From a virus (taxonomy: Duplodnaviria; Caudoviricetes), in the IMG/VR virus record IMGVR_UViG_3300048575_000428, positions 1 to 53,267 of that record: DNA of 53,267 nt, one strand, 5' to 3'. Positions within the stretch are counted from its first letter, which is position 1, and each line of letters starts with the position of its first letter. The position numbers were made by a program, and so were the translations under genes. The notes beneath the pieces were generated by a model. That model searched no databases. It saw only the letters and a list, made by a program, of their open reading frames with translations, and had not been told where the DNA came from. Positions 1,326-46,967 of the stretch are shown here, in pieces.

Positions 1326-2033
1326 TCAGAGCCGGGCGGCCTGCACGTGCATCCAGTCGAAGTTCCGGGCGCGCCCGAGGCTGACCCAGCCCTCGTCTTC
1401 CCAGATGCGCCAGAAGGTTTCGGCGTCGGGCTGGGCGAGGCGCGCGCGGTCCGCACCCCACTTGAGCTGATTGCGATCGGGGTCGAAGTCGATCGCGATA
1501 CCCCAGGCGTGCATCGACGGCCGCGAGCCGCCGCGCATCGGCCGGACGTTGAGACAGCCGCCGAACTGGTCGATGCCGAGGTCCGCCCGGGCGGCCTCGT
1601 CGTAGGCATCGCCGATGCGGCTGAGGCAGCGCAGCACCGAGTCGGCGACGCGTTCATGGCAGGTGATGCGCTGGACGGCCGGGCGGTCGTCCCACGCGAG
1701 GTACATGGTCCACGGCAGGTTGATCGAAACCTGATGCTCGCCGACGGCGCCATAGAAGCTGTCGCACTCAGCCTGGCGCGGCCAGATCGGCGCGATGTGC
1801 GCAGGCTCGGCCGAGGGCGGATCGACGTCGCGACCGAGCGCGGGGTCGATGGCCTCGGGGAAAAGGTGCGATTGCGTGACCGGCCCCGGCAAGCCATCGG
1901 CGACAAGGCCGACGGAGGCCTGAAACTGCTTCACGGCGGCGATCGTCTTCGGGCCATTGATGCCGTCGGCGCGGCCGCCATAGAGCCCGAGCTGGGCGAG
2001 GCGAGCCTGAATTTCCTGCAGGCTGTGCGACAT
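1326..2033 (-). CDS. Endolysin: PG-binding domain plus M15-family peptidase
   Basis: DGINGPKT...ADGLPGPVT PG_binding_1 motifs; R..R...SMHAWGIAID and DWMH Zn-peptidase motifs; GGAG RBS. Confidence 0.9.
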   Translation of the reverse strand: MSHSLQEIQARLAQLGLYGGRADGINGPKTIAAVKQFQASVGLVADGLPGPVTQSHLFPEAIDPALGRDVDPPSAEPAHIAPIWPRQAECDSFYGAVGEHQVSINLPWTMYLAWDDRPAVQRITCHERVADSVLRCLSRIGDAYDEAARADLGIDQFGGCLNVRPMRGGSRPSMHAWGIAIDFDPDRNQLKWGADRARLAQPDAETFWRIWEDEGWVSLGRARNFDWMHVQAARL

Positions 2034-12179: not shown

Positions 12180-15100
12180 TCACCAGGGGTAGCCGCGCAG
12201 CTGCGCGATCTGCGGCCGCGACAGCGGCGTGCCGGTCAGGGTCAGCTTCAGCCGGCCCTCGGTCGCCGTGATCTCGCCGCCCTCGAAGAGCGTCTCGACC
12301 CAGCCATTGCCGAGCGCCGTCGTGTCCGCCGGCGACATGGTCAGCCAGGTGTCGTCGGCCTTGTCGTGCGCCATGGTCAGCGACGAGCCCGACGGCAGGA
12401 AGGCCTCGACCAGCGCCTTGACCGTGACCGCGCTGCCGAGCGGCCAGACGCGGCTGACATAGGTGCCGGTCGTGCGCAGCCGGCCGGTCAGCACGGTGAC
12501 GCCCGGCCACAAGGTGGGCGCCACCTTGGCCGACCCGGCGAGCACGGCCCGGAGTGTCGCGGTCTCGGTGACGAAGCTCGAAAATTGCAGCGTCTGCCCG
12601 GCGGCGAGCGGCACCACCTCGCCCGAGGCGCGCACCAGCTCGAAGCGCGCCGTCGCCGCCTCGGTCGGCAGCTCGGCCGTGCCGCGCACCACCAGGTCGG
12701 AGATGGTGTCGAGGTCGATGGTGCCGAGCGTGACGGTGCGGCTCGTCGGGGCGAAATCGGCGACCACGACCTCGAAGGCGACGTCGGAATTCGGATCGAG
12801 CAGCCACGAACGACTGTTCGAGCCGGAGAACAGATCGCCGACGATGTAGGGCTGGGCGCCGACATTGGTCTGCCGGCCGGTGTCGGGGTCGACATAGACG
12901 TCGCCGAGGCGGGCGATCGAGATCGCATGCGCGGCGTCATCGGTCATCCAGACGAAGGCGTTGAAGCTGTTGGGCGACACGAACACCGGCGCGGCGAAAC
13001 GCGCCTCGATCTTGTCGCCGACGGCCACCGCGCTCATGTCGATGACGGCCTCGGCAAGGATCTCGGTCGTCGGATAGCCGTTGGCCGTCGCCACCATCTG
13101 GACGCGGACGACGCGGGTCGGATCGCCAAGCGCCGCGACCCAGAAGTTGACGCCGACGACATGGCGCGCCTCGTCGAGGGCGAAGGTCTGGGCGAGCGGG
13201 TCGCCGCTGTCGGAATGGCTGTCGGGCACGACGACACCGGCGGAGACTTCCCGGATTTCGGCGCGCGTCACCAGCGTGACGCGGCGCATGACGTCGACCT
13301 CGATCGTCGTCTGTCCGACGAAGATGGCGCTGGCGAAGCTGCCGGCCTGCCCTTCCGCCCGCACGCGGCGGGCGCCGGCCGGCACGTTGGCGGGAATCGT
13401 CAGCGTGCCTACGATCTGGCCGGCGCCGTTGGCGACGAGCGCCGGATCGGGCGTGATGTCGACGCCGTCGAAGGTCAGTTCCTCGAGGATCTCGCCGGCG
13501 CCGAAGCCGGTGATGGTATAGGCGACCTCGACCTCGGGCATGAAGGCGCCGATCTCGGTGCGCTCCGACACGACCTCGTTGATCACGGTCGTCGACAGCA
13601 CCTGGCCGGAACCGCCGAAATTCTGCGTCTCGCCCGATGTCCACACCGTCGCCTGCTCGGCGGCGAAATAGACCGGCGGCTCCAGCTTCAGCCCGCCCGC
13701 CATTCGCGTGAAGTTGGCGTAAGGGTTGATCTTCATGGCGCTGGTGCGCAGCGGCTGCAGCGACAGCACCGCCTCGGTCCAGGCAAGCGTGATCGGCTCG
13801 GCCACGAACTGCTGGACGCCGATCAGATCGACGGCGAGCTGCAGCGTGTTGCCGACGATCGCCGCCGTCTGCGCCTCGCCGGCATCGCGCAAGCCGTCAT
13901 CGGCGAAGTGGTCGATGAAGACGTTGCGGGCGCTGACGCGGTCGGGGACATTCGAGGCGAGGTTGGCGCGGCTGAACTGCTGCACCACCAGCTCCAGCTG
14001 GTTGATGCGGCGCCACAGCATGTCATACGTGACGCGCGTCGTGCCGTTGTTCTTGATCGCCGGCGTGCCGAGCCAGTCGTTGTCGATCTCGGCGAGCTTC
14101 AAGAGCGTCGTCGGCGCCGGCGGCGCGAGGCGGCCCTTGCGGGCGGCGATGCCGGGCACATAGCGGGTATTGCCGTCGCTATCGAGGCACAGGATGTCGG
14201 TGCGCGGGATCTTGGACTTGTAGCTGAGGCGGGCCGGCTGGCCGATGGTGCCTCCGGCGACGGTGACGGTGGTGTCGGTGATCGCCGAGGGCGTGACCGC
14301 GTCCTCGTAGCGATAGACGACGGTGTAGGTCGACGACGCGACCGGCTCGGCGCCGGCCGGCGCCCACGAGATGGCGTCGCCGGCGAGCACGAAGTCGGTG
14401 CTCGCGGTGTAGGTGGTCGCGCCCTGCGTCACCGACACGATGGCGCTGACCGAGGCATGCGCCAGCTCGTCGATGCCGCCGGCGATCGAACCGCGCGTCA
14501 CAGTCTCCGTCACCGTCTTGGTGACGACGGCGAGCTGCACCGAATGGATCGCGGGCCGGTTGGTCTCGATCACCATGGGGTTGGCGGTGACCGTGTGCGT
14601 CTCGGAGACGATGGTCTCCAAAGTCGGCGCCTCGGTCTCGACATGGCGCAGCGCGGCGTCGCGGGTGCGCTTCTGGCCCATGATGTTGGCGGTACCGGCC
14701 TCGACGGCGAAGATCTGCGCCGAGCCGAGCTTGCCGAGCGCCGTCACCTGACAGCCCTCGACGATGTAGTTGCCGTGGGCATGGCGGTCGTAGAGCGCGA
14801 TGGCGGCGTTGATGCCGCTGAGGCTGGGCGGCTCGGTCTGGTCGATGATGACGCCGTCGACGAGGCTGTAGACCGGGTAATAGTCGCCGGCGCCGTCATC
14901 GCCAGGCAGCGCCCAGGCGATCGTTTCGTCCTCGCGCGCCATGCCGGGCTCGCCCTCGGCGTAGCTGCCGGGCTCGTTGCCGAGGGCGGTGACGTCGTCG
15001 GGATAGTCGACGAGCACGGTGCGGAGCCGGATGCCGATCGTCGTCGAGCCGGTCATCGGCACGTCTTCCAGAACGGCGGCCGCGACCGGGCGCACATCGC

Positions 15101-22010: not shown

Positions 22011-22915
22011 GCTGTCCCTCTCTTGTTGACGGCCTCGCGGAAGGCGGCGAAGGCGTCGTGCGGGTTGCCGACGATGTCGGCGAGGCCGATGCGAACCGCC
22101 TCGCGGCCGCGATAATCGAGCGCTTCGGTCTTGAGGACGCCGGCCTTGTCGATGGCCTTGCCACGACCGCGCGCGACGTGTCCGGCGAATACCTGCCGCA
22201 TGGCCTCCAGGTCGGCGCGGATGCGCGCCGCGACGTCGTCGCCGAGCGGTGCGTAGGGCCAGCCATCGCCCTTGTGCGCGCCGGCGGTCAGCACGGTGAC
22301 CTTGACACCGGCCTCGTCGCAGGCGCCGGACATATCCATGTGCAGCATGAGGCAGCCGATGGAGCCGCAGCCGCCGTTCTCCGGCACGACGATCTTGCGC
22401 GCCTGGCTGGCAAGCCAGTAGGCGGCGGAATAGGCAGCGTCGGTCAGGATCGCCATCGTCGGCTTCACCTGCGACAGGCGATAGATCAGGTCGGCCGTGT
22501 CGGCCACGCCCGAGATCTCGCCGCCGCCGGAATCGACCTCGAAGACCACGCCGCGCACGCCGCTGTCGGCGGCGGCGCGCACGACCTGCGCCTGAAGGCC
22601 CTGATAGGACGTCAATCCGCAGGACTGGCCGATCCAGCCACCCTTATGAACCAGCGCGCCCTCGATGGTGATGACGGCGACGCCATCCACCATGCTGTAG
22701 GGCTGGACACGGGCGGCGTCGTAGGAACGGCCGATGCGATCGTCGAGCGTGCCGGCCTGGGGCCGGATGACGCGGTGCTCGCCCGACGGTAGGGTCAGCG
22801 ACACCGGGCCGCCGACGGCGCGCGCGATCAGCCAATCGAGGGCAACGGCGGTGCGTTCCGAGACGGCGAGCGGCTGGTTGAAGAGCCGCTCGGCGACCTG
22901 TGCCATGCCGATCAT
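22007..22915 (-). CDS. Prohead protease, S49 family (lambda gpC-like)
   Basis: VDSGGG, AYSAAYWLASQA, GSIG, AGAHK. Confidence 0.93.
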   Translation of the reverse strand: MIGMAQVAERLFNQPLAVSERTAVALDWLIARAVGGPVSLTLPSGEHRVIRPQAGTLDDRIGRSYDAARVQPYSMVDGVAVITIEGALVHKGGWIGQSCGLTSYQGLQAQVVRAAADSGVRGVVFEVDSGGGEISGVADTADLIYRLSQVKPTMAILTDAAYSAAYWLASQARKIVVPENGGCGSIGCLMLHMDMSGACDEAGVKVTVLTAGAHKGDGWPYAPLGDDVAARIRADLEAMRQVFAGHVARGRGKAIDKAGVLKTEALDYRGREAVRIGLADIVGNPHDAFAAFREAVNKRGTA

Positions 22916-24531
22916 GCGCCGGTCCCCGCGTTGCTGTGCTGCTGGTCGGACGGGTAGCCGCCCGACGACGTCATGGCGATTTCGGTGCCGGCGAAGAGGC
23001 GGCCGGGCTCGAGGCCGTGCTGCTGTTCCAGTTCCTTCGCCCGGGCGATTTCGCGGGCGCGCTGCTCCAGCGTCTCTTCCCAGTCGTCGCCCTGCTCGGC
23101 CGCTTCGCGCTCCTGGCTCGACAGGTTGAGCGCGATGCGCTTGCCGGCGGCCTCGGCTTCCTTCAGCGGATCGACCCAGCCACGGCCCGGCATCAGCCAG
23201 CGCGCGCGTGTCCAGGCGAACCGCGCCTCCTCGAACGAGGGGGCGCCGGCCGGAATGCGGACGCGGCCGCGGGCGAAGGCCTCCTCGATGACGCGGACAT
23301 AGATCGGCTGCACGAACTGGGCGGCGAAGGCGCTGGCGCGCGAGGAGAAGCCTCGCCAGATCTCCAGCAGGGCGGCGCGGGCGCTCGAATAGTTAACCTG
23401 GCTCCAGTCGGCCGACAGCTGCTCATAGGTCAGGCCGAGAGCGCTGGCGATGTTGCGCAGCGCCGCGCGGACGAAAGCGTCGAACACCGCGTTCGGGTGC
23501 GCCGACGGCGTGAATTCGATCTTCTCGCCCTCATAGAGGTAGTTGATCATCGCGCCATCGAGGCGCACGCCACCGCTTTGCTCAAGGTACTCCGCCCGCC
23601 GATCGGCATAGCCGGCGTCCTTGTCAGACGCGCCAGTGGCAATGGCCTCATCGATCGCCTTCGGGTCGTAGGGCGAGGTGACGAATGCGCCGAGCACGGC
23701 GTTCAGCACCGCCGCCTGCAGCTCCACCTCGCTGTAGCGCCCGAGCATCCGCACGCTCTTGACGACGCTGGAGAGCATGGACACGCCACGGATCTGCCCG
23801 GCGCGCGTCGCCTCGAACGCGTGCACGACGAGGCGGCGGCCATTGATGAAGCGCGGCACGCGGACGTGACGGCTGTCGCCGATGCCGGTGGCGACGGGGT
23901 CGCCGGGATGGGCAACGCGGAAGTGATAGGCGAGCGGCTCGCCATGGCCGCCGAGTTCGATGCCGTCGCGAAACGACGCCGTCGGGGTGTTGAGATCGGG
24001 CTGCGACAGGCGATCGGGGTCGACAATCTCGACCGCCGTCGACCACGGCCCGCCGCGATCGAGCCACTGGATGATGGCGAGAGCCTCGCCATCCATGGCG
24101 CGGTGGCGATAGGCGAGCGCCAGCAAACCGCCGAAAGTGTTGCGCTGCGCCGCGTCGCACCAGCAGTCGGTGTCCTCCGCCCACTCGGCGAAGGCGCTCT
24201 TCAGCTGGGCGGTGACCTCGGTCACCTGATCGGCGGTAAGGCCGAGCTGGCGGCGATCAGGACGCGGATTGAGGCGCCAGCCGGCGCCGATGATGTTGTC
24301 GACCAGCCGGTCCATGCCGGCGGACGCCCAGCCGTCGTTACGGGCGAGGTCCTGAACACGGCGGTTCAGCAGGTCGCGGTCGCCGGAGATGGCGGCCTGC
24401 GCCTGATAGGAGCGCGGCCGGTAGGCGGCGAGATCCTGATGGGTGCGCGACGCACCGGTATAGGCGCTGTCGGCCTTCGCCTTCCGCCAGGGGCGGCCGT
24501 GCGGGTCGGCGGTCGCGGTGGTCGCGGTCAT
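22912..24531 (-). CDS. Portal protein, lambda family
   Basis: DLARNDGWA, GQIRGVS, DWSQVNYSSARA, GWVDPLKE. Confidence 0.95.
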   Translation of the reverse strand: MTATTATADPHGRPWRKAKADSAYTGASRTHQDLAAYRPRSYQAQAAISGDRDLLNRRVQDLARNDGWASAGMDRLVDNIIGAGWRLNPRPDRRQLGLTADQVTEVTAQLKSAFAEWAEDTDCWCDAAQRNTFGGLLALAYRHRAMDGEALAIIQWLDRGGPWSTAVEIVDPDRLSQPDLNTPTASFRDGIELGGHGEPLAYHFRVAHPGDPVATGIGDSRHVRVPRFINGRRLVVHAFEATRAGQIRGVSMLSSVVKSVRMLGRYSEVELQAAVLNAVLGAFVTSPYDPKAIDEAIATGASDKDAGYADRRAEYLEQSGGVRLDGAMINYLYEGEKIEFTPSAHPNAVFDAFVRAALRNIASALGLTYEQLSADWSQVNYSSARAALLEIWRGFSSRASAFAAQFVQPIYVRVIEEAFARGRVRIPAGAPSFEEARFAWTRARWLMPGRGWVDPLKEAEAAGKRIALNLSSQEREAAEQGDDWEETLEQRAREIARAKELEQQHGLEPGRLFAGTEIAMTSSGGYPSDQQHSNAGTGA

Positions 24532-24539
24532 GGCCAGCC

Positions 24540-24743
24540 TCAGAAGGACACGCGGCGGGACGCGCGGCGCGGCGTGCCGTCGCGCTGGGCGGTGAGTTCG
24601 TCGCGACGGCGGTTGATCTCGCCCTCGCTCACCTTGGCCATCTCCACCTCGCGGCCGCGATCGCGGACGCGCGTCGTCTGACCACCGGTCACACGCTCGG
24701 TCATGGCGGCCTCGATGGCCGCGAGATCGTCGTCGATGCCCAT
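24540..24743 (-). CDS. Head completion protein (lambda gpW-like)
   Basis: 67 aa immediately before the portal; helix, TGG..RV...GREVE, helix. Confidence 0.8.
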   Translation of the reverse strand: MGIDDDLAAIEAAMTERVTGGQTTRVRDRGREVEMAKVSEGEINRRRDELTAQRDGTPRRASRRVSF

Positions 24744-25024
24744 CAGGCGCTCCGGTACTTCTTGGCGGTGGCGAGCGGCACGCCGACCGCCTTGGCGATG
24801 GCGGCCGAGGTGTTGCCGAGCTTGGCGAGCGTGCGGATGGTCCGCTTCTGCGCTTCGGTCGGCACGAACTCCGGCGTGATCGCCGGCACCGGCGACGGCG
24901 CTGGCGGCTGGGCTTGCTGCCGGGTGAGGAGGCCGAGCCGCTCGGCGGCGGGCCGCGCGACGGCGCAGTGGGGCGCGACGGCCACCATCTCGGCGCCATC
25001 GGGACGGGTGTAGCTGTCGAGCAT
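24743..25024 (-). CDS. Small HTH protein
   Basis: PTEAQKRTIRTLAKLGNTSAAIAKAVGVPLATAKKY helix-turn-helix; GAGG RBS; coupled to gpW. Confidence 0.7.
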   Translation of the reverse strand: MLDSYTRPDGAEMVAVAPHCAVARPAAERLGLLTRQQAQPPAPSPVPAITPEFVPTEAQKRTIRTLAKLGNTSAAIAKAVGVPLATAKKYRSA

Positions 25025-25039
25025 GGGCGCCTCGCGAAG

Positions 25040-25652
25040 GTCGGTTGGCGGCGATGTCTGGGAGGTCGGACAGCTTCGGGCCTGACACCCTATCCCTCGC
25101 GGGACCGCCGCCGCCGGCCGGGACTTGCAACCGAGCCGACGGTTCGCCGCACGGGGTCAGGCCGCGCGGCTCGGGAAAGGTTGACCATCCATGCGGCCCG
25201 GTCTCGCTCCGGCGACGCAGGTCTTGCGTTTGCTGTCCGCTCTTCGCACGGATGGTCCATCCCGTTGTCGGGACCTGTGACGACTGCTACCCCGGGCGCA
25301 CTGCCGCCGGGGGCTGAAGGCCGGATTTCACCCCGGCCCTCAGCCCCGCCGCGTTCGCTCTCTGGGGTTATTGCTGTGCCCGTTTGGGCGAAACTGATGT
25401 CCGTCTCTCCGGACCGTCACGCCTAGCCCACGGCGTTCTTGTCTGCCTTTCAGGTGAGCGGGCAGCTGCCTGCGCAAGATCCATCAGCCCTTGCCTTACG
25501 GCCTACGCATGTCCCTCGCCTTGCGGTGCTTTTCAGAGGAACTTCGGGGACATCGGTGCCCGTTCGGGCGAAACTGGTGGGCCGATTTTCGCGGCCCTGC
25601 CGGATCTCGCTCCGGCTGGCGGCCCTCAGCGGGCGGTGATGCCATTCGACGG
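25040..25652 (-). ncRNA. Putative structured ncRNA cluster (three units)
   Basis: About 600 nt with no credible CDS in a gene-dense operon; many stems with GNRA or T-loop-like loops; G-U pairs work on the minus strand only. Confidence 0.6.
25376..25576. repeat. 21-bp direct repeat GTGCCCGTTYGGGCGAAACTG, two copies 180 bp apart
   Basis: 25376-25396 and 25556-25576, one mismatch; related hairpin at 25976-25994. Confidence 0.9.
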
Positions 25653-25961
25653 TCAGGACACGCGAATGTGCGGGTCGATGACCGCGAAGCCGAGGCCGGC
25701 GGCGGCGCGCCAGGCCTGGCCGGGCTGGTTCCAGACGACATAGCGGCGGGTGTGACCATCGAACGGTGCGACGCTCGACAATCGCTCCTCCGCCACGGCG
25801 ACATGCGGCGCCTCGGCGATGATCGGCATCATCACCGGCGCCATGTCGACGACGGCAATGACATCCGGGCCGTAGCGCTGGATCGGGCTCGCCGTGAACG
25901 ATACGGCCATGAGGGCGGCGAGGATGCCAAAGGTGAAGAGGAAGAGCTTGCTGGTCCGCAT
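25653..25961 (-). CDS. Hypothetical exported or membrane protein downstream of the tRNA
   Basis: CAGGAG RBS; N-terminal signal/TM segment. Confidence 0.7.
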   Translation of the reverse strand: MRTSKLFLFTFGILAALMAVSFTASPIQRYGPDVIAVVDMAPVMMPIIAEAPHVAVAEERLSSVAPFDGHTRRYVVWNQPGQAWRAAAGLGFAVIDPHIRVS

Positions 25962-26008
25962 GAGCTTCTCCTGTGGTGCCCGGGTCCGCCGGGCGCGGTC
26001 TTCAAAGG

Positions 26009-26085
26009 TGGTTGCGCCGGCCAGATTCGAACTGGCGACCTCCAGCTTATGAGGCTGGCGAGCTACCGGGCTGCTCTACGGCACT
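26009..26085 (-). tRNA. tRNA-Met(CAT), initiator-like, with encoded CCA
   Basis: 77-nt cloverleaf: AGTGCCG TA GAGC AGCCCGGTA GCTC G CCAGC CTCATAA GCTGG AGGTC GCCAG TTCGAAT CTGGC CGGCGCA ACCA. Confidence 0.95.
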
Positions 26086-26096
26086 GAAGCGCTGTG

Positions 26097-26402
26097 TTAC
26101 TCGGTCGCCGGCAGATCGCGCGGCGCGGCGGGAACGAAATCGAGGTAGAACACTTCGCCCTCGGTGAACTTCTCGAAGAGCGCCGGATTGGCCACCGTCA
26201 TGTCGAGACCGAGGTTGGGCGTGAACTTGGCGAAGGTGTTGTCCTCGTCGAGACCGTCAGCGGGATAGGCCTCATTGCGGCCGACGGCGGCAAAACGCAG
26301 CCGCTGTTGCAGGATGGTGCCGTCGTCCGACCGCATGGTGTCGATCCGACCGATGCGGACCTTCGCGCGCATCTTGACGAAGACGGGCTCCACTTCCGAC
26401 AT
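26097..26402 (-). CDS. Conserved-looking phage hypothetical protein
   Basis: MRAKV...DEDNTFAKFTP...NPALF...FYLDF; GGAGAG RBS. Confidence 0.8.
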   Translation of the reverse strand: MSEVEPVFVKMRAKVRIGRIDTMRSDDGTILQQRLRFAAVGRNEAYPADGLDEDNTFAKFTPNLGLDMTVANPALFEKFTEGEVFYLDFVPAAPRDLPATE

Positions 26403-26418
26403 GTGTCTCTCCATCTGG

Positions 26419-28464
26419 TTAGCCGCCCCTCGCCCGCCGCGCGATGGCGGCGAGGCGAGCGGCGGCGGATGTCGTTTCCGTCGGCGGCCTCAACGCCTGG
26501 GTTTCGGCGGGCGCGGACGCTTCCGGCTCGGCAGCAACAGGGCGAGACGGCTTCTCCAGCGGCCCGCTGAACAGGTCCTGTTGCCCCTTCCGCGCCCCGT
26601 GCCGGTCCTCAAGGATCTCCGTCCATTGCTGGCGGTCGATGCGGTCGATGCCGAGCCCGTTCGGGAAGGCGCCGAAGGCGAAGGCGCGGGCGTAGACGGC
26701 GAGGTCGAGACCCTCGTTGCGCTGCCCGGAGATCGGTTGCCAGATCATGTCCGACTTGCCGTTGCGACGATCGATGCGGATCAGCACCTCGGCGGTGAGC
26801 TGCCGGACATAGGCCTCGTCGACTAAGTCCTGCGCCAGGTGAATACGGCCAGGGTAGTCGTGCTTGCCCTCTTCCAGCGCCTTGAGCGCGTGGCTCAACC
26901 ACGTCTTCAGGTCGTGGGTATTGGTGAAATAGAGCGGCACCCGATAGAGCAATCGCCCCGTCGCGCTCTTGACGTCGACCCGTCGCGGCGTGCCGATGAT
27001 CGGCGCGTTACGATCGCTGGCGCCCTTGAGCGCGCGCCATTTCCGCTTCCCCCGCACGAACTTGTAGACGTCTTGCGTCCAGTGGCCACCGGAATCTATC
27101 ACACACAGATCGGGCTCGATCATCTTGCCGCCGGCGTGCGGCCAGGCCCGACCCGCCGTATCCGCTAGCTCCTGCCACGGCGCCGGCGTCGCCAAGTCGC
27201 CAGGGATGACGCCGCCGGCGATCAGCCACTGTTCCGGTGTCACCGACGTCGCCGGCGGACCGAAGCCCCAAAGCGCCCACTCGAACCGGTCATCCTGTGT
27301 ATCGACCGCGAACACCAACCGGCCGACGGTCGGCGGCACTACGTTGCGCGGGTAGTCCTCGGCCGCCTTGACGATCTTGGCCGGATCGAGATCCGATGCG
27401 TACTCCTCGTAGCTCTCGCCGAGGGTGAGATTGACGAAGCCTTTCTCCTGGTCGGGCTTACCTTCGACCTCGACATAGGTCGCGGCGATGGTGTCCCAGT
27501 CGGTCAGAAGCGACGACAGCGCGTTAATGAAATAGCTCGGCTGGCGGCCCTGGCCCGGCTTCGTCGGCTTCCACCGACCCGCCAGCACCATGGCTTCCTG
27601 CTGCCAACTGTCGATCTGCGCGCCACAGCACTGCGCCATGTAATGCGCGTTGTGCGGCGCGTGCCGCTCGAAGCGCAAGTGCTCGAAGCGGAAGTCGATT
27701 TCCGCTCCGCAGTGCGGGCACGGCATGACCCAGATGCGTTGATCGCCGGCTTCGTAGGCCCGATCGATCCGGCTCTTGCCCTTCAGCGCCGGCGTCGAGA
27801 TGACAAGTTTCTTCTGTTGGCGCAGGCGGGTGTACGAGAGCTGACGCGCGTCGAGCATCAGCATCGGATCGCCCTGCCCGTCCAGGTCGTCCGGCCAGCG
27901 ATCGACCTCGTCGGCGACGGCGAAGCGACAGACCTTCGACGATAGGTCCGTTGCCGAATTGGCGCCCGTCAGGATCAGCGGGCCGCCGGGAAACATCTTG
28001 GTCCGGGTGGTGGACCCGGTGCCGTCACGCGAGCGCTGTGGCGCGATCCTCTCGGCGATGGGCTTGCAGCCCTCGATCGCCGGCGTCAGGCGCTCCTTGA
28101 CGAAGTCGACCACCGACTGCACCGTCGGCAGGACGTACATCGCCGCGTCGGCGTCGTCGCTGTCAAACAGCGAGAACAGCCAGGCAATACCGCCCGTCGT
28201 AAAGGCCGTCTGGCTCGATTTCTTGACCGCAACCACCGTCCAGGGGGAGTCCGGCGACAGCATGTCGAACGGCTCGCGCAGGTGCGGCGTTCTGGCGAAG
28301 TCGATCAGCTTGCCCTTGTGCGGGCCGGCCGGGACGACAAAGTTCTTCTCCATCCACTCCGACGTGCGCCAGCGCTTCTTCGGCCGGATGCCGCGCGCAA
28401 ACGCCTCAAGCCAGAGTTGCCTTTCGCTCTGGAAGCTATTGGGGTCTGGTTGATGTGTCATCAT
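26419..28464 (-). CDS. Terminase large subunit (lambda gpA family)
   Basis: KSSQTAFT Walker A, AVADEVD Walker B, STP motif, CPHCG, VDTQ and DSGG nuclease motifs. Confidence 0.96.
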   Translation of the reverse strand: MMTHQPDPNSFQSERQLWLEAFARGIRPKKRWRTSEWMEKNFVVPAGPHKGKLIDFARTPHLREPFDMLSPDSPWTVVAVKKSSQTAFTTGGIAWLFSLFDSDDADAAMYVLPTVQSVVDFVKERLTPAIEGCKPIAERIAPQRSRDGTGSTTRTKMFPGGPLILTGANSATDLSSKVCRFAVADEVDRWPDDLDGQGDPMLMLDARQLSYTRLRQQKKLVISTPALKGKSRIDRAYEAGDQRIWVMPCPHCGAEIDFRFEHLRFERHAPHNAHYMAQCCGAQIDSWQQEAMVLAGRWKPTKPGQGRQPSYFINALSSLLTDWDTIAATYVEVEGKPDQEKGFVNLTLGESYEEYASDLDPAKIVKAAEDYPRNVVPPTVGRLVFAVDTQDDRFEWALWGFGPPATSVTPEQWLIAGGVIPGDLATPAPWQELADTAGRAWPHAGGKMIEPDLCVIDSGGHWTQDVYKFVRGKRKWRALKGASDRNAPIIGTPRRVDVKSATGRLLYRVPLYFTNTHDLKTWLSHALKALEEGKHDYPGRIHLAQDLVDEAYVRQLTAEVLIRIDRRNGKSDMIWQPISGQRNEGLDLAVYARAFAFGAFPNGLGIDRIDRQQWTEILEDRHGARKGQQDLFSGPLEKPSRPVAAEPEASAPAETQALRPPTETTSAAARLAAIARRARGG

Positions 28465-29056
28465 CCACCAGCGACTTGACTATCGCATCCGCTGCGTTGT
28501 TCTTGGCTTCCGCAACTTTCTTCCGCATGAATGCATCGATCGCGTCCACGCCGCCCGTCTTGGATAGCGCGTCGAGTTGCTCGGATAGGTGCAGGAACGT
28601 GTCGAACTCACGACCGCAAACCTGCCCGGCCTTTTCCGCGCCGGAGAGGATGGGAGCCTTCTCCACAACCTCGCCGCGCTCTCGCGCGAGCCGGAGGTTG
28701 AGGAGGGCTAGGCGAGCCTTTTCACTTTCCGATCGCGCGCCGTAGAACGCGTCTGCTGCCGGAGGCGTTGTTGCCTTGTCTTCCGGCGGCGGGGCGATTG
28801 CTTCGGCCAAATCCCGCTCTAGTTCGGCCGCAGCCGCTACAAGAGCCGCATCATCGATGCGCGCCCGAGAAAGCTTGAACGCCTCGAAAGCCTCGTCGGG
28901 ATTGACGAACTTCCGCCCTTCATAGGAGGCGTCGACCCGCAGGCCGGCCTCGTCGTAGACCGGAATACGGCCGACCTTGATTGCCTTCGCCACCCCCTGG
29001 CGCGTGATCCCGACCTTTCTGGCGAATTCGGCAGGCGTGATCATGAGGCGTGTCAA
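28436..29056 (-). CDS. Terminase small subunit (Nu1-like)
   Basis: N-terminal wHTH (AEFARKVGITRQGVAKAIKVGRI), coiled coil, RERGEVV; start may be 29044. Confidence 0.85.
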   Translation of the reverse strand: MTRLMITPAEFARKVGITRQGVAKAIKVGRIPVYDEAGLRVDASYEGRKFVNPDEAFEAFKLSRARIDDAALVAAAAELERDLAEAIAPPPEDKATTPPAADAFYGARSESEKARLALLNLRLARERGEVVEKAPILSGAEKAGQVCGREFDTFLHLSEQLDALSKTGGVDAIDAFMRKKVAEAKNNAADAIVKSLVDDDTSTRPQ

Positions 29057-45968: not shown

Positions 45969-46311
45969 CCCCGCCCTCACCTCGGCGAGCGACGGCATGG
46001 CCGAGGCGCTCGCCCGCCTCGCCCTGATCGAGGGCGATATCGCCACGCTGCTGACCGACGCGCATCGCCGCGCCGGCGAACTCTATGGCTTGACCAAGGC
46101 CGCCGCCGTCTGGCCACGCCCCGAGCGCGCGCCCGGCATCGAGCAGCTGCTGCGCGAGATGGAGGAGACGGCCGAAGGCATCGCCACCATCCCGAAACAG
46201 ATCCGCCTTCGGCTGGCGCGCCTGCAGGCCGCCCGCGCGCCCGCCGCGCAACCCGCCCCGCCGCCAGACAACAGCTTCCGGGCCCGCCACCGGGCCGACG
46301 AGAGGACGTGA
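45961..46311 (+). CDS. Hypothetical helical protein
   Basis: GGAGG RBS. Confidence 0.65.
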   Translation: MPDPALTSASDGMAEALARLALIEGDIATLLTDAHRRAGELYGLTKAAAVWPRPERAPGIEQLLREMEETAEGIATIPKQIRLRLARLQAARAPAAQPAPPPDNSFRARHRADERT

Positions 46312-46967
46312 CCATGACCGCCGCATCCGGCAACTCCCGCGCCGCCGACGAACTCATCTCCTTCCGCGATCGCTTCACCGTGCTGTTTCTGGAGCAGGAG
46401 GACTTGAACCGCCGGATCGGCGAACTGGTGACCGAGGCCAAGAGCCGCGGCTATGTCGTCAAGGCGATCAAGACGCTGGCGAAGCGCAAGCTGGAGACCG
46501 AGACGGAGCGCGCCAACCGCCGCGACTACGAGGCGCAGCTTGAACTCTACGCCATGACGACTGGCCAGGCCGAGGCGCCGCTTTCCGACGATGCGCGTCG
46601 ACGCATGAGCCCGCCCGAACCTCCGGCCGACAATGGCCCTGATCATCAGGACGATGATGCGCCGCTCGCCCCCCCGTCGGACGGCGGTCTCGGCCCGACA
46701 GAGGCCGATATCACGGCCGCACATGCCGAGGGTGGGGTCGCATTCCAAGCCGGTGCCAAGGTCACGGACAACCCCTACCCGGCAGGCGACCCGCGTCGCC
46801 GCGCCTGGGATCAGGGCTTCTGCCTGTCGTCGGGATCGGACGGCATGGATATCCCCGCGCACCTGCGCCGGCCGGAGCGCCCGAAGAAGCCGGCCGCGCC
46901 GCCGACGGAGGAACCGGCCGCGCCGGAGGAGCCGGAGGTGCAGCCGGAGCCGGAGGACGCTGAATGA
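46308..46967 (+). CDS. GapR/DUF2312-like domain fused to an Rmf/CrpP-like motif
   Basis: ADEL.SF..R...L..E.......I.E...EAKSRGY..KAI...LELY...G; AEG..A..AG....NPY......AW..GF. Confidence 0.75.
   Translation: MTMTAASGNSRAADELISFRDRFTVLFLEQEDLNRRIGELVTEAKSRGYVVKAIKTLAKRKLETETERANRRDYEAQLELYAMTTGQAEAPLSDDARRRMSPPEPPADNGPDHQDDDAPLAPPSDGGLGPTEADITAAHAEGGVAFQAGAKVTDNPYPAGDPRRRAWDQGFCLSSGSDGMDIPAHLRRPERPKKPAAPPTEEPAAPEEPEVQPEPEDAE

Follow-up and report, generated by a model that had tools for sequence, protein, structure and literature searches.

What fills the space between two packaging genes of a provirus where no protein appears to be encoded? The question is raised by the 53,267-nt provirus record IMGVR_UViG_3300048575_000428, analysed over its full length and referred to here as the window. 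A first-pass annotation had described, between the genes for the large terminase (terL) and the portal, a tRNA, a 102-amino-acid (aa) open reading frame (ORF) and then about 600 nt without a credible coding sequence. It had divided this stretch into three units, A to C, folding densely on the minus strand, and had proposed that a late transcript is cut there into tRNA-mimic or ornate RNAs, perhaps decoys for anticodon nucleases or cofactors of packaging. The order was as described and every element was in its place; the gap measures 628 nt, has no Pfam match and shows a collapse of codon periodicity. What the annotation had missed is that one 18-mer, GTTTCGCCCRAACGGGCA, stands immediately behind unit A and again behind unit B. 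In our judgment the chances are about even that the locus is a co-transcribed array of a tRNA-Met and small RNAs, the 3' ends of which are set by this motif acting as a punctuation signal read by a host factor. The features in question are:

26009-26085, minus strand: tRNA-Met(CAT), head of the array (ARAGORN; Rfam RF00005, 58.7 bits)
25025-25652, minus (sense) strand: gap without coding signal, 628 nt
25575-25652, minus strand: unit A, 78 nt, with two local hairpins (~25599-25616 and ~25579-25597) and the tail ACCA (25575-25578)
25557-25574, minus strand: motif copy 1, GTTTCGCCCGAACGGGCA, after the unit A tail ACCA
25395-25556, minus strand: unit B, 162 nt, with a 3' module H1-GAC-H2-tail ATCA (tail 25395-25398; H1, 25432-25436 with 25419-25423; H2, 25410-25414 with 25399-25403; GAGAGA loop, 25404-25409)
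25377-25394, minus strand: motif copy 2, GTTTCGCCCAAACGGGCA, after the unit B tail ATCA
25025-25376, minus strand: unit C, 352 nt, with a 15-bp hairpin (25310-25347) and a 13-bp-stem domain (25183-25257)

The two copies belong to a direct repeat, CAGTTTCGCCCRAACGGGCA, at 25557-25576 and 25377-25396 (2 matches as opposed to 0.01 expected from 100 shuffles). From its 5' edge, the motif is made up of an AU-rich pentamer, an invariant GCCC-GAAY-GGGC hairpin, an A and often ACGA. The conserved extent is ~24 nt, with nothing conserved further downstream. The core, YGCCCRAAYGGGCA, is fixed and ACGA is often next to it. The pentamer is variable yet AU-rich (AATTC is commonest, followed by GTTTC, TATTC and ATTTC), in genomes of 58-69% GC, and the loop is GAAC or GAAT, rarely GCAA or GAAA. 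A covariance model (R1) was built from 58 sites, all of them from loci outside the window, with the alignment (A2) filtered on flanking bases. Run on the window, it returned copy 1 with 40 bits (E 7e-13, over 25549-25582) and copy 2 with 28 bits (E 3e-8, over 25369-25402); the next-best match, at 14.4 bits, was inside the portal gene. Copies are spaced 180 nt apart in the window and 110-335 nt apart elsewhere. This spacing, along with the lack of a shared neighbour protein, does not fit a CRISPR-like array with 28- to 37-nt repeats, ~30- to 40-nt spacers and cas genes. Integron attC sites, the alphaproteobacterial SOS box, sigma-54 sites and a permuted T-arm were rejected by eye against consensus sequences.

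Well over 60 phage contigs carry the motif, as do cultured phages of Caulobacter, Brevundimonas and Rhizobium. Scans of viral contigs gave 29 loci for the exact 18-mer and at least 119 for the looser pattern TTYGCCCGAAYGGGCA; these sets include chance matches and were sorted partly by eye. At many of the exact-match loci, the motif starts right after a tRNA CCA or after a hairpin and a 2- to 5-nt tail ending in A. The earlier assignment of the units to the minus (sense) strand, with 3' ends resembling those of tRNAs, is supported, and the 18-mer behind units A and B follows real tRNA CCA ends in other phages. BLASTN against cultured phages matched two Synechococcus phage records (82% over 70 nt) and Caulobacter phage CcrPW (86% over 36 nt).

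Five non-coding loci in cultured phages were examined, and in all five the motif was on the sense strand with respect to the genes around it. In CcrPW and Brevundimonas phage Kabachok it precedes the major capsid gene, in RB23 it separates the tail tube gene from that of the tape-measure chaperone, and in Rhizobium phage RHph_N1_10 it comes after glutaredoxin. In Caulobacter phage CcrBL9, an annotated tRNA-Asp contributes its last bases to the start of the match. The capsid-leader motif is conserved between Caulobacter and Brevundimonas jumbo phages, and the hairpin in front of it differs in sequence. Further cultured matches came from six more Brevundimonas records, one Microcystis phage and five more Caulobacter phages of the RB23 group (C1, C2, J4, BL47 and Bertelyvirus sp.). 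Sixteen mycobacteriophage matches, in or under annotated genes and 95% identical over 20 nt, were taken as probable chance matches. Bacterial genome contigs yielded 93 matches, approximately the chance number by our own estimate, of which ~7 look real by eye. Out of 400 sampled alphaproteobacterial genomes, 1 contained the motif, as opposed to 6 matches for a reversed control pattern. This chance-level occurrence in bacterial genomes makes the motif a phage feature rather than a host tRNA trailer.

The richest array found was in a prophage-like region of an Ancalomicrobiaceae metagenome-assembled genome (locus L134, 3745-5170, minus strand). There, a ~1.4-kb non-coding array with a tRNA-Met carries at least seven motif copies, 110-210 nt apart and all on one strand, between an ORF and a small membrane-protein gene.

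To place the motif relative to tRNAs called by ARAGORN, we tallied 124 distinct TTYGCCCRAAYGGGCA instances among the matches listed in viral contigs, chance matches included. Eight of them were at offset 0 or -1 from the 3' end of a same-strand tRNA (Cys, Met three times, Asn twice, Asp and one undetermined). Another 27 had a same-strand tRNA within 1.5 kb, and 5 had only some other tRNA in the locus. A terminal helix ended 1-7 nt upstream of the motif in 55/109 cases, compared with 27-37/109 at four shifted control positions. Directly before the motif stood an A in 47/109 viral matches versus 16/86 genome matches, which are mostly chance, and ACG directly followed the motif in 28/109 versus 5/86. 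The AU-rich pentamer sits between two helices.

No phage protein was found to travel with the motif. Among the protein clusters within 6 kb on either side, none was common to more than 4 of 49 loci, and in six whole motif-bearing phage records no cluster occurred in more than 3, the one in 3/6 being helicase-like. This absence points to a host factor as the most likely reader, unless the RNA acts alone. Taken together, the sense-strand orientation, the start at CCA ends, the helix with its short tail, the AU-rich linker and the missing phage partner fit a punctuation signal. Under such a scheme, a long operon transcript would be cut where a short AU-rich linker, left unpaired, joins the upstream helix to the invariant hairpin. 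Trimming by one or a few bases would then leave the upstream RNA, whether a tRNA, a tRNA-like RNA or a hairpin-ended small RNA, with an end of the form helix-N-CCA or helix-NNA. Host RNase E, the most economical candidate, may make the cut, the invariant hairpin serving as a specificity or protection element. One study reports that RNase E prefers AU-rich single-stranded sites even in an alphaproteobacterium of 69% GC (PMC6238624), and another gives a uridine two bases downstream of the cut as the main signature of Salmonella RNase E (PMC5222698). We put any particular enzyme much lower than the proposal that the motif is a processing signal.

A broader version of this proposal can be put forward tentatively, and we would sooner doubt than believe it. 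The motif would be an invariant RNA "full stop" of ~24 nt, common to alphaproteobacterial phages and read by the host, that sets CCA-type 3' ends of tRNAs, of hairpin-ended small RNAs and of some mRNA segments. It would then be a new processing signal, possibly the minimal substrate of RNase P or of an unnamed nuclease, and the released RNAs, including the GAC/GAGAGA module of unit B, would form a new effector class with tRNA-like ends. Exact motif strings had zero matches in the ~8.4 million papers searched, a collection that leaves out subscription journals and supplements, and a topic search likewise returned nothing relevant. These searches, together with Rfam 15, point to a motif that is apparently undescribed.

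Several observations weigh against a punctuation signal. We infer co-transcription, cleavage, the cut position, the enzyme and the functions of units A to C, the cutting from the anatomy of the sites. RNase E alone would need no invariant hairpin, so a sequence-specific reader is still missing. By the covariance model, the tRNA-Met of the window has no motif copy behind it, and 84 of the 124 tallied instances, chance matches among them, had no tRNA in the fetched locus. The hairpins of unit A, together with its tail and the motif, match a segment within real ORFs of four phages, always in one frame; an element inside ORFs is awkward for a cleavage signal. Units A and B, taken singly, fold no better than shuffles (200 each): z was -1.3 for unit A, with 21/200 shuffles as good, and -0.6 for unit B, with 56/200. 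Folding energies so near those of shuffles are weak evidence alone, and the support for these two units comes from comparison with other phages. An outer helix that pairs the pentamer with the bases after the hairpin is sterically possible and would, if formed, mean that the AU-rich linker is not single-stranded. It was without covariation support, as 79.7% of cells were paired versus 79.3% in shuffles and 127/500 shuffles reached the observed score. Finally, the inner pairs of the motif were CG in 58/58 sequences and the GCCC/GGGC stem showed no covariation at all, an invariance for which a DNA site would account equally well.

When the three inner pairs were left free, 10/44 distinct matches had CCC/GGG, 3 were single deviations in typical contexts and the rest were non-complementary chance matches. 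A stem that is invariant and shows no covariation suggests that the motif is read by sequence; for pairing itself, the invariance is neither for nor against. The motif might be read as DNA, either as a cassette-exchange junction or recombination sequence or as the site of a DNA-binding protein. Both stem arms are part of what is invariant, TGCCC..GGGCA coming close to an inverted repeat. What lies between the motifs is mosaic, and related phages have different units there, as do the window and contig L211; relatives by terL are without the whole block, and a ~95%-identical relative (X1, below) has a ~105-nt deletion in unit C. Inside ORFs, the motif occurs at the joint of varied N-terminal domains and a common C-terminal module. 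We nevertheless consider a DNA role quite unlikely. The orientation to tRNAs is strict (35 same-strand versus at most 5 otherwise), the motif is on the sense strand at 5/5 cultured-phage loci, and the asymmetric loop and the flanks are conserved along with the stem. No recombinase or other protein is linked to the motif, and the capsid-leader copy, kept in place, looks like a vertically conserved working site and not like a scar.

The same orientation and the same invariant stem bring an RNA-level alternative to the punctuation signal into play, namely that the hairpin is a leader site similar to nut boxB. It would load an antitermination factor that carries RNA polymerase through the long, structured, untranslated parts of the late operon, and would not be there for cutting. 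Rho would have access to 0.6-1.4 kb of RNA left untranslated within an operon. The motif never departs from the sense strand, it occupies untranslated stretches that precede structural genes with strong expression, and in arrays it comes after each untranslated unit (2 copies here, at least 7 in L134). Its GC stem, capped by a GAAY, GCAA or GAAA loop, is sequence-invariant and without covariation. NusG-like antiterminators are encoded by Rhizobium and Sinorhizobium phages that have a similar tRNA-Met close to the terminase. Two of these, phiLM21 and RHph_TM3_3_3, have NusG-like genes yet no motif past the tRNA-Met by eye, and no NusG-like gene was found among the window proteins scanned. A loading site, moreover, needs no zero-offset abutment to CCA such as that at eight tRNAs, and no phage protein is common to motif-bearing genomes. 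We regard antitermination as an unlikely purpose of the motif.

If no protein partner can be found, the RNA could also cut itself. The motif would then form the conserved core of a small self-cleaving ribozyme, and cleavage at the 5' edge of the motif itself would free the upstream CCA. Its nucleotides are invariant as in catalytic cores, and its place next to tRNA 3' ends resembles that of theta ribozymes, located within 5 nt of tRNAs (PMC10879173). Against such a core, no Rfam ribozyme matched the window at E<=10 or the 28 motif loci at gathering score, where only tRNA, mmgR and tmRNA matched. Conservation ends ~24 nt downstream, too little for any known self-cleaving fold, and by eye there is no room for the second strand of a hepatitis delta virus (HDV) helix between its first strand and the hairpin. 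A ribozyme therefore seems to us very unlikely.

Unit B has comparative support of this kind. Its end reads GTCCG-GAGAGA-CGGAC-ATCA, and its last ~45 nt constitute a 3' module of a helix (H1), a GAC linker, a second helix (H2) with a GAGAGA loop, and a 3- to 5-nt tail. The module was found at 9 other places in 8 contigs, by a pattern that fixed the linker and the loop and left the stems free. H1 and H2 both form in 10/10 copies, around the constant GAC linker and a GAGAGA-type loop, and 6 or more distinct stem sequences are represented for each helix. Judged from these sequences, the stem changes are genuine compensatory variation. The module is followed by the motif with its usual loop in 7/10 copies, by a loop variant in 2/10 and by no motif in 1/10. 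Covariation among homologues, which the RNA units of the first-pass annotation would lead one to expect, was thus found in the stems of this module; it was not to be had from the terL-portal intervals of eight relatives, which are without the block.

Unit A ends in GGGCCG-CGAAAAT-CGGCCC-ACCA, and its minimum free energy structure equals the centroid. The terminal hairpins of units A and B and their ACCA and ATCA tails are indeed present as they had been quoted. Over 70 nt, unit A shares 82% identity with an element of Synechococcus phage Yong-M2-251, which is one member of the ORF-embedded family; the others are in L164, L222 and L230, and two members have a GapR-like N-terminus.

The family's coordinates are L002 2342-3364, L164 8369-9835, L222 6126-6971 and L230 3992-4777. 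N-terminal domains differ (GapR-like in two, methyltransferase-like by eye in L164), and the C-terminal module, with its Cys-rich end, is common to them. The RNA-like element is embedded in frame in this module. The window has a GapR-like protein of its own (46308-46967), without the module.

Such embedding raises the possibility that the gap is decaying DNA, the functionless remnant of a GapR-like or other gene together with degenerate tRNA fragments. Unit A has its match in coding sequence of other phages, tRNA halves lie beside motifs in L007 and L029, and the 3' part of unit C evolves fast, with indels in the X1 relative. As a pseudogene, unit A was rejected: when the window was searched by TBLASTN with three ORF-embedded relatives, a single match of 17 residues at E 4.3 came back. 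The X1 relative, a ~95%-identical metagenome relative from one run, represented by single contigs at a depth of ~6, had 0 differences in 25553-25648 (unit A and motif 1) as opposed to 14 in the 309 nt of the neighbouring ORF102, which encodes the 102-aa protein. Contigs of four runs in all were aligned to the window, and bins 25208-25515 were uncovered in every one of them. With the compensatory changes of the unit B module across 10 copies and a motif unchanged in very different phages, we find decay hardly credible.

Within the ORFs, the element's 22 codons showed 0 synonymous differences among three family genes, and the adjacent block showed 3 in the sole gap-free pair. From these comparisons, the unit A element seems to be under nucleotide-level constraint within ORFs as well, a feature that none of the explanations accommodates well.

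Unit C is the largest unit, and its 3' end is the leader of ORF93, the next gene. The 15-bp hairpin and the 13-bp long-range stem reported earlier are both there. The hairpin arms (25310-25324 and 25333-25347) contain one DNA mismatch and are 93% complementary, and the stem arms (25183-25195 and 25245-25257) likewise contain one and are 92% complementary; each mismatch would be a G-U pair on the minus strand, by eye, as had been argued. The first ~20 nt of unit C resemble the stretch after a motif in L024 (87% over 39 nt, motif included), and beyond them no homologues were detected. Across 25025-25180, the X1 relative has at least 13 substitutions and two 1-nt indels, and it appears to be without ~25181-25289 (~105 nt, the 13-bp-stem domain), as read from a loose contig end. 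Placed on the predicted fold, 13 of the X1 changes comprise 8 at unpaired positions, 3 one-sided changes that keep a pair, 2 that break long-range pairs and 0 double compensatory ones. For this model of unit C, the substitutions would neither support nor contradict the fold.

Around the array, the packaging operon contains the following genes:

28436-29056, minus strand: small-terminase-like gene
26419-28464, minus strand: terL, gpA-type large terminase, upstream in the operon (Pfam GpA_ATPase 8.4e-58, GpA_nuclease 2.2e-64)
26097-26414, minus strand: ORF105, small protein (phrog_6978 at 6e-9; strong codon periodicity)
25653-25961, minus strand: ORF102, 102 aa, predicted small membrane-like protein (ORF list; codon periodicity)
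24743-25024, minus strand: ORF93, small protein, first gene 3' of the RNA block (phrog_12540 at 2.8e-5; codon periodicity)
24540-24746, minus strand: gpW-like adaptor
22912-24999, minus strand: lambda-type portal, 695-aa ORF (Pfam match from residue 189)
after the portal in minus-strand order: S49 protease

As listed, the portal ORF overlaps ORF93 and the gpW-like gene; its Pfam match begins at residue 189, so the true portal start is probably near 24540. ORF102 had no Pfam or PHROG match, and its relatives were not found in viral contigs. TBLASTN of ORF105 against the loci of eight terL relatives gave zero matches.

Of the six longest ORFs in the gap, both strands considered, none had a Pfam match at E<=0.1 (0/6), and the periodicity of GC at the third codon position, 0.30-0.55 in ORF105, ORF102 and ORF93, was 0.07-0.20 across 25660-25060. 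The claim of dense minus-strand folding was borne out to a moderate degree for the gap as a whole (z -3.3, 0/20 shuffles as good, versus z -1.4 and 1/20 on the plus strand) and for unit C alone (z -2.8, 1/100 shuffles as good), which was the single unit to stand out; it failed for units A and B, which behaved like shuffles. At gathering score, tRNA was the sole Rfam match in the window. Rfam 15 at E<=10 over 24700-26200 returned the tRNA-Met as its only tRNA match and no GOLLD, ROOL, C4 antisense RNA, Y RNA-like or self-cleaving ribozyme family; the other matches at that threshold were miRNA-type models on the 15-bp hairpin. ARAGORN called no tRNA in units A to C, only that at 26009-26085. The first-pass annotation, too, could match the units to no named family, and its suggestion of tRNA-mimic or ornate RNAs was upheld for the tRNA-like ends, with no match to tRNA, GOLLD or ROOL behind the rest.

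How did the array come to be inside the operon? In eight terL relatives of 25-63% identity, the portal match lies ~0.2-0.5 kb past terL, with no tRNA, motif or small ORFs in between. The block is thus an insertion of ~1.6 kb, with three small ORFs, the tRNA-Met and at least three non-coding units, all on the sense strand of the operon. Contig L211, which has a related terL, carries in the same slot a tRNA-Met, a 69-nt hairpin-ended unit, the motif and a 170-nt unit that ends in hairpin-ACC, after which the contig breaks off just as another motif begins. A scan of the minus strand over 24400-26600 found no sigma-70-like promoter and no terminator-like site, which fits read-through transcription.

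In the Rfam alignment, the first acceptor pair of the tRNA-Met is a non-standard A opposite A. Its trailer (25970-26008, minus strand) contains, by eye, a longer hairpin, GCCCGG..CCGGGC, and then an A; the hairpin is ~14 nt past the CCA, has a T-rich stretch before it and may be a diverged motif. Similar tRNA-Met genes (82-89% identity) are found in Sinorhizobium phage phiLM21 (L136, 2495-3136) and Rhizobium phage RHph_TM3_3_3 (L135), where they are near the terminase genes and beside the NusG-like antiterminator gene, with no motif after the tRNA by eye. In phiLM21, the tRNA-Met adjoins a small protein that resembles ORF105 by eye.

Other segments recur near tRNAs and motifs. Just past a tRNA, L012 (~1710-1830, minus strand) and L031 (~14320-14450, plus strand) have in common a ~120-nt element (79% over 73 nt) with no Rfam match. 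L024 and L026 contain a conserved non-coding segment 230-350 nt past their motifs (85% over 47 nt), also with no Rfam match. A two-hairpin unit precedes the motif both in L031 (13900-13971) and in RHph_N1_10 (L277, ~1430-1500), with compensatory changes in both stems by eye. The tRNA halves mentioned above are a 5' half before the motif in L029 (560-700) and a 3' half after it in L007 (850-1700). Belonging to a 279-kb phage contig and a 39-kb one, these halves could be split, permuted or broken genes.

The maturation of phage tRNA arrays and of adjoining non-coding RNAs is known for only a few model phages. The motif makes it simple to search sequence data for such RNAs, and it delimits several recurrent unnamed RNA modules. 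It could serve as bait for the host reader factor and as a portable part for defined RNA ends in Caulobacter or Rhizobium. With the existing phages CcrBL9, CcrPW, RB23 and RHph_N1_10, it also makes the question of cut, tRNA-ended RNAs experimentally approachable.

Among known systems, the nearest in position are theta ribozymes, minimal HDV-like ribozymes that adjoin gut-phage tRNAs, with tRNA-Met among the commonest partners (PMC10879173). Like the motif, they are phage elements directly at tRNA ends and are thought to shape 3' ends; tRNA-Met, a common partner there, heads the array here. The motif is at offset 0 or -1 at eight tRNAs, within the ~5 nt that marks theta ribozymes, and threading it by eye gave no nested double pseudoknot. 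Theta ribozymes have an HDV double pseudoknot with a catalytic C, whereas only a ~24-nt hairpin motif is conserved here, with no HDV-type Rfam match. Their hosts are Bacteroidota and Bacillota, with CCA encoded in 4.5% of tRNAs, in contrast to alphaproteobacteria and an encoded CCA here.

GOLLD and ROOL, too, are structured non-coding RNAs near phage tRNAs, but each is a single large fold, whereas the window has a string of small units with a common spacer. T4-like tRNA clusters also yield small stable RNAs that are co-transcribed and matured by host enzymes, and we know of no sequence common to their units. An array of tRNAs and non-tRNA small RNAs is what we propose here as well; the window differs in its common spacer motif between units and in its setting, the packaging operon of a temperate phage.

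Two classical phage signals invite comparison. The lambda nut boxB is a short GC stem with a purine-rich loop that is read by sequence, lies on the sense strand and is present in more than one copy per phage. The motif's hairpin has the same traits, and its placement at CCA ends has no nut counterpart. Neither a boxA-like partner nor an N-like protein was identified: alignment A2 contains no conserved second box except ACGA, and no phage protein is common to the loci, N-like proteins being too small and diverse for such searches. RNase III sites of T7-like phages are extended, irregular double helices in which the stem itself is cut, in contrast to the 4- to 5-bp invariant hairpin of the motif with an AU-rich linker before it. 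On the reading proposed for the motif, both would be conserved intercistronic elements that are read by a host nuclease and leave ends with protective hairpins. A last parallel is eukaryotic: at MALAT1/mascRNA, a 3' end is formed when RNase P reads a full cloverleaf mimic downstream. Here a tetraloop hairpin would take the place of the cloverleaf, with RNase P only a possibility, and, as at MALAT1, a downstream structured element would define the upstream 3' end.

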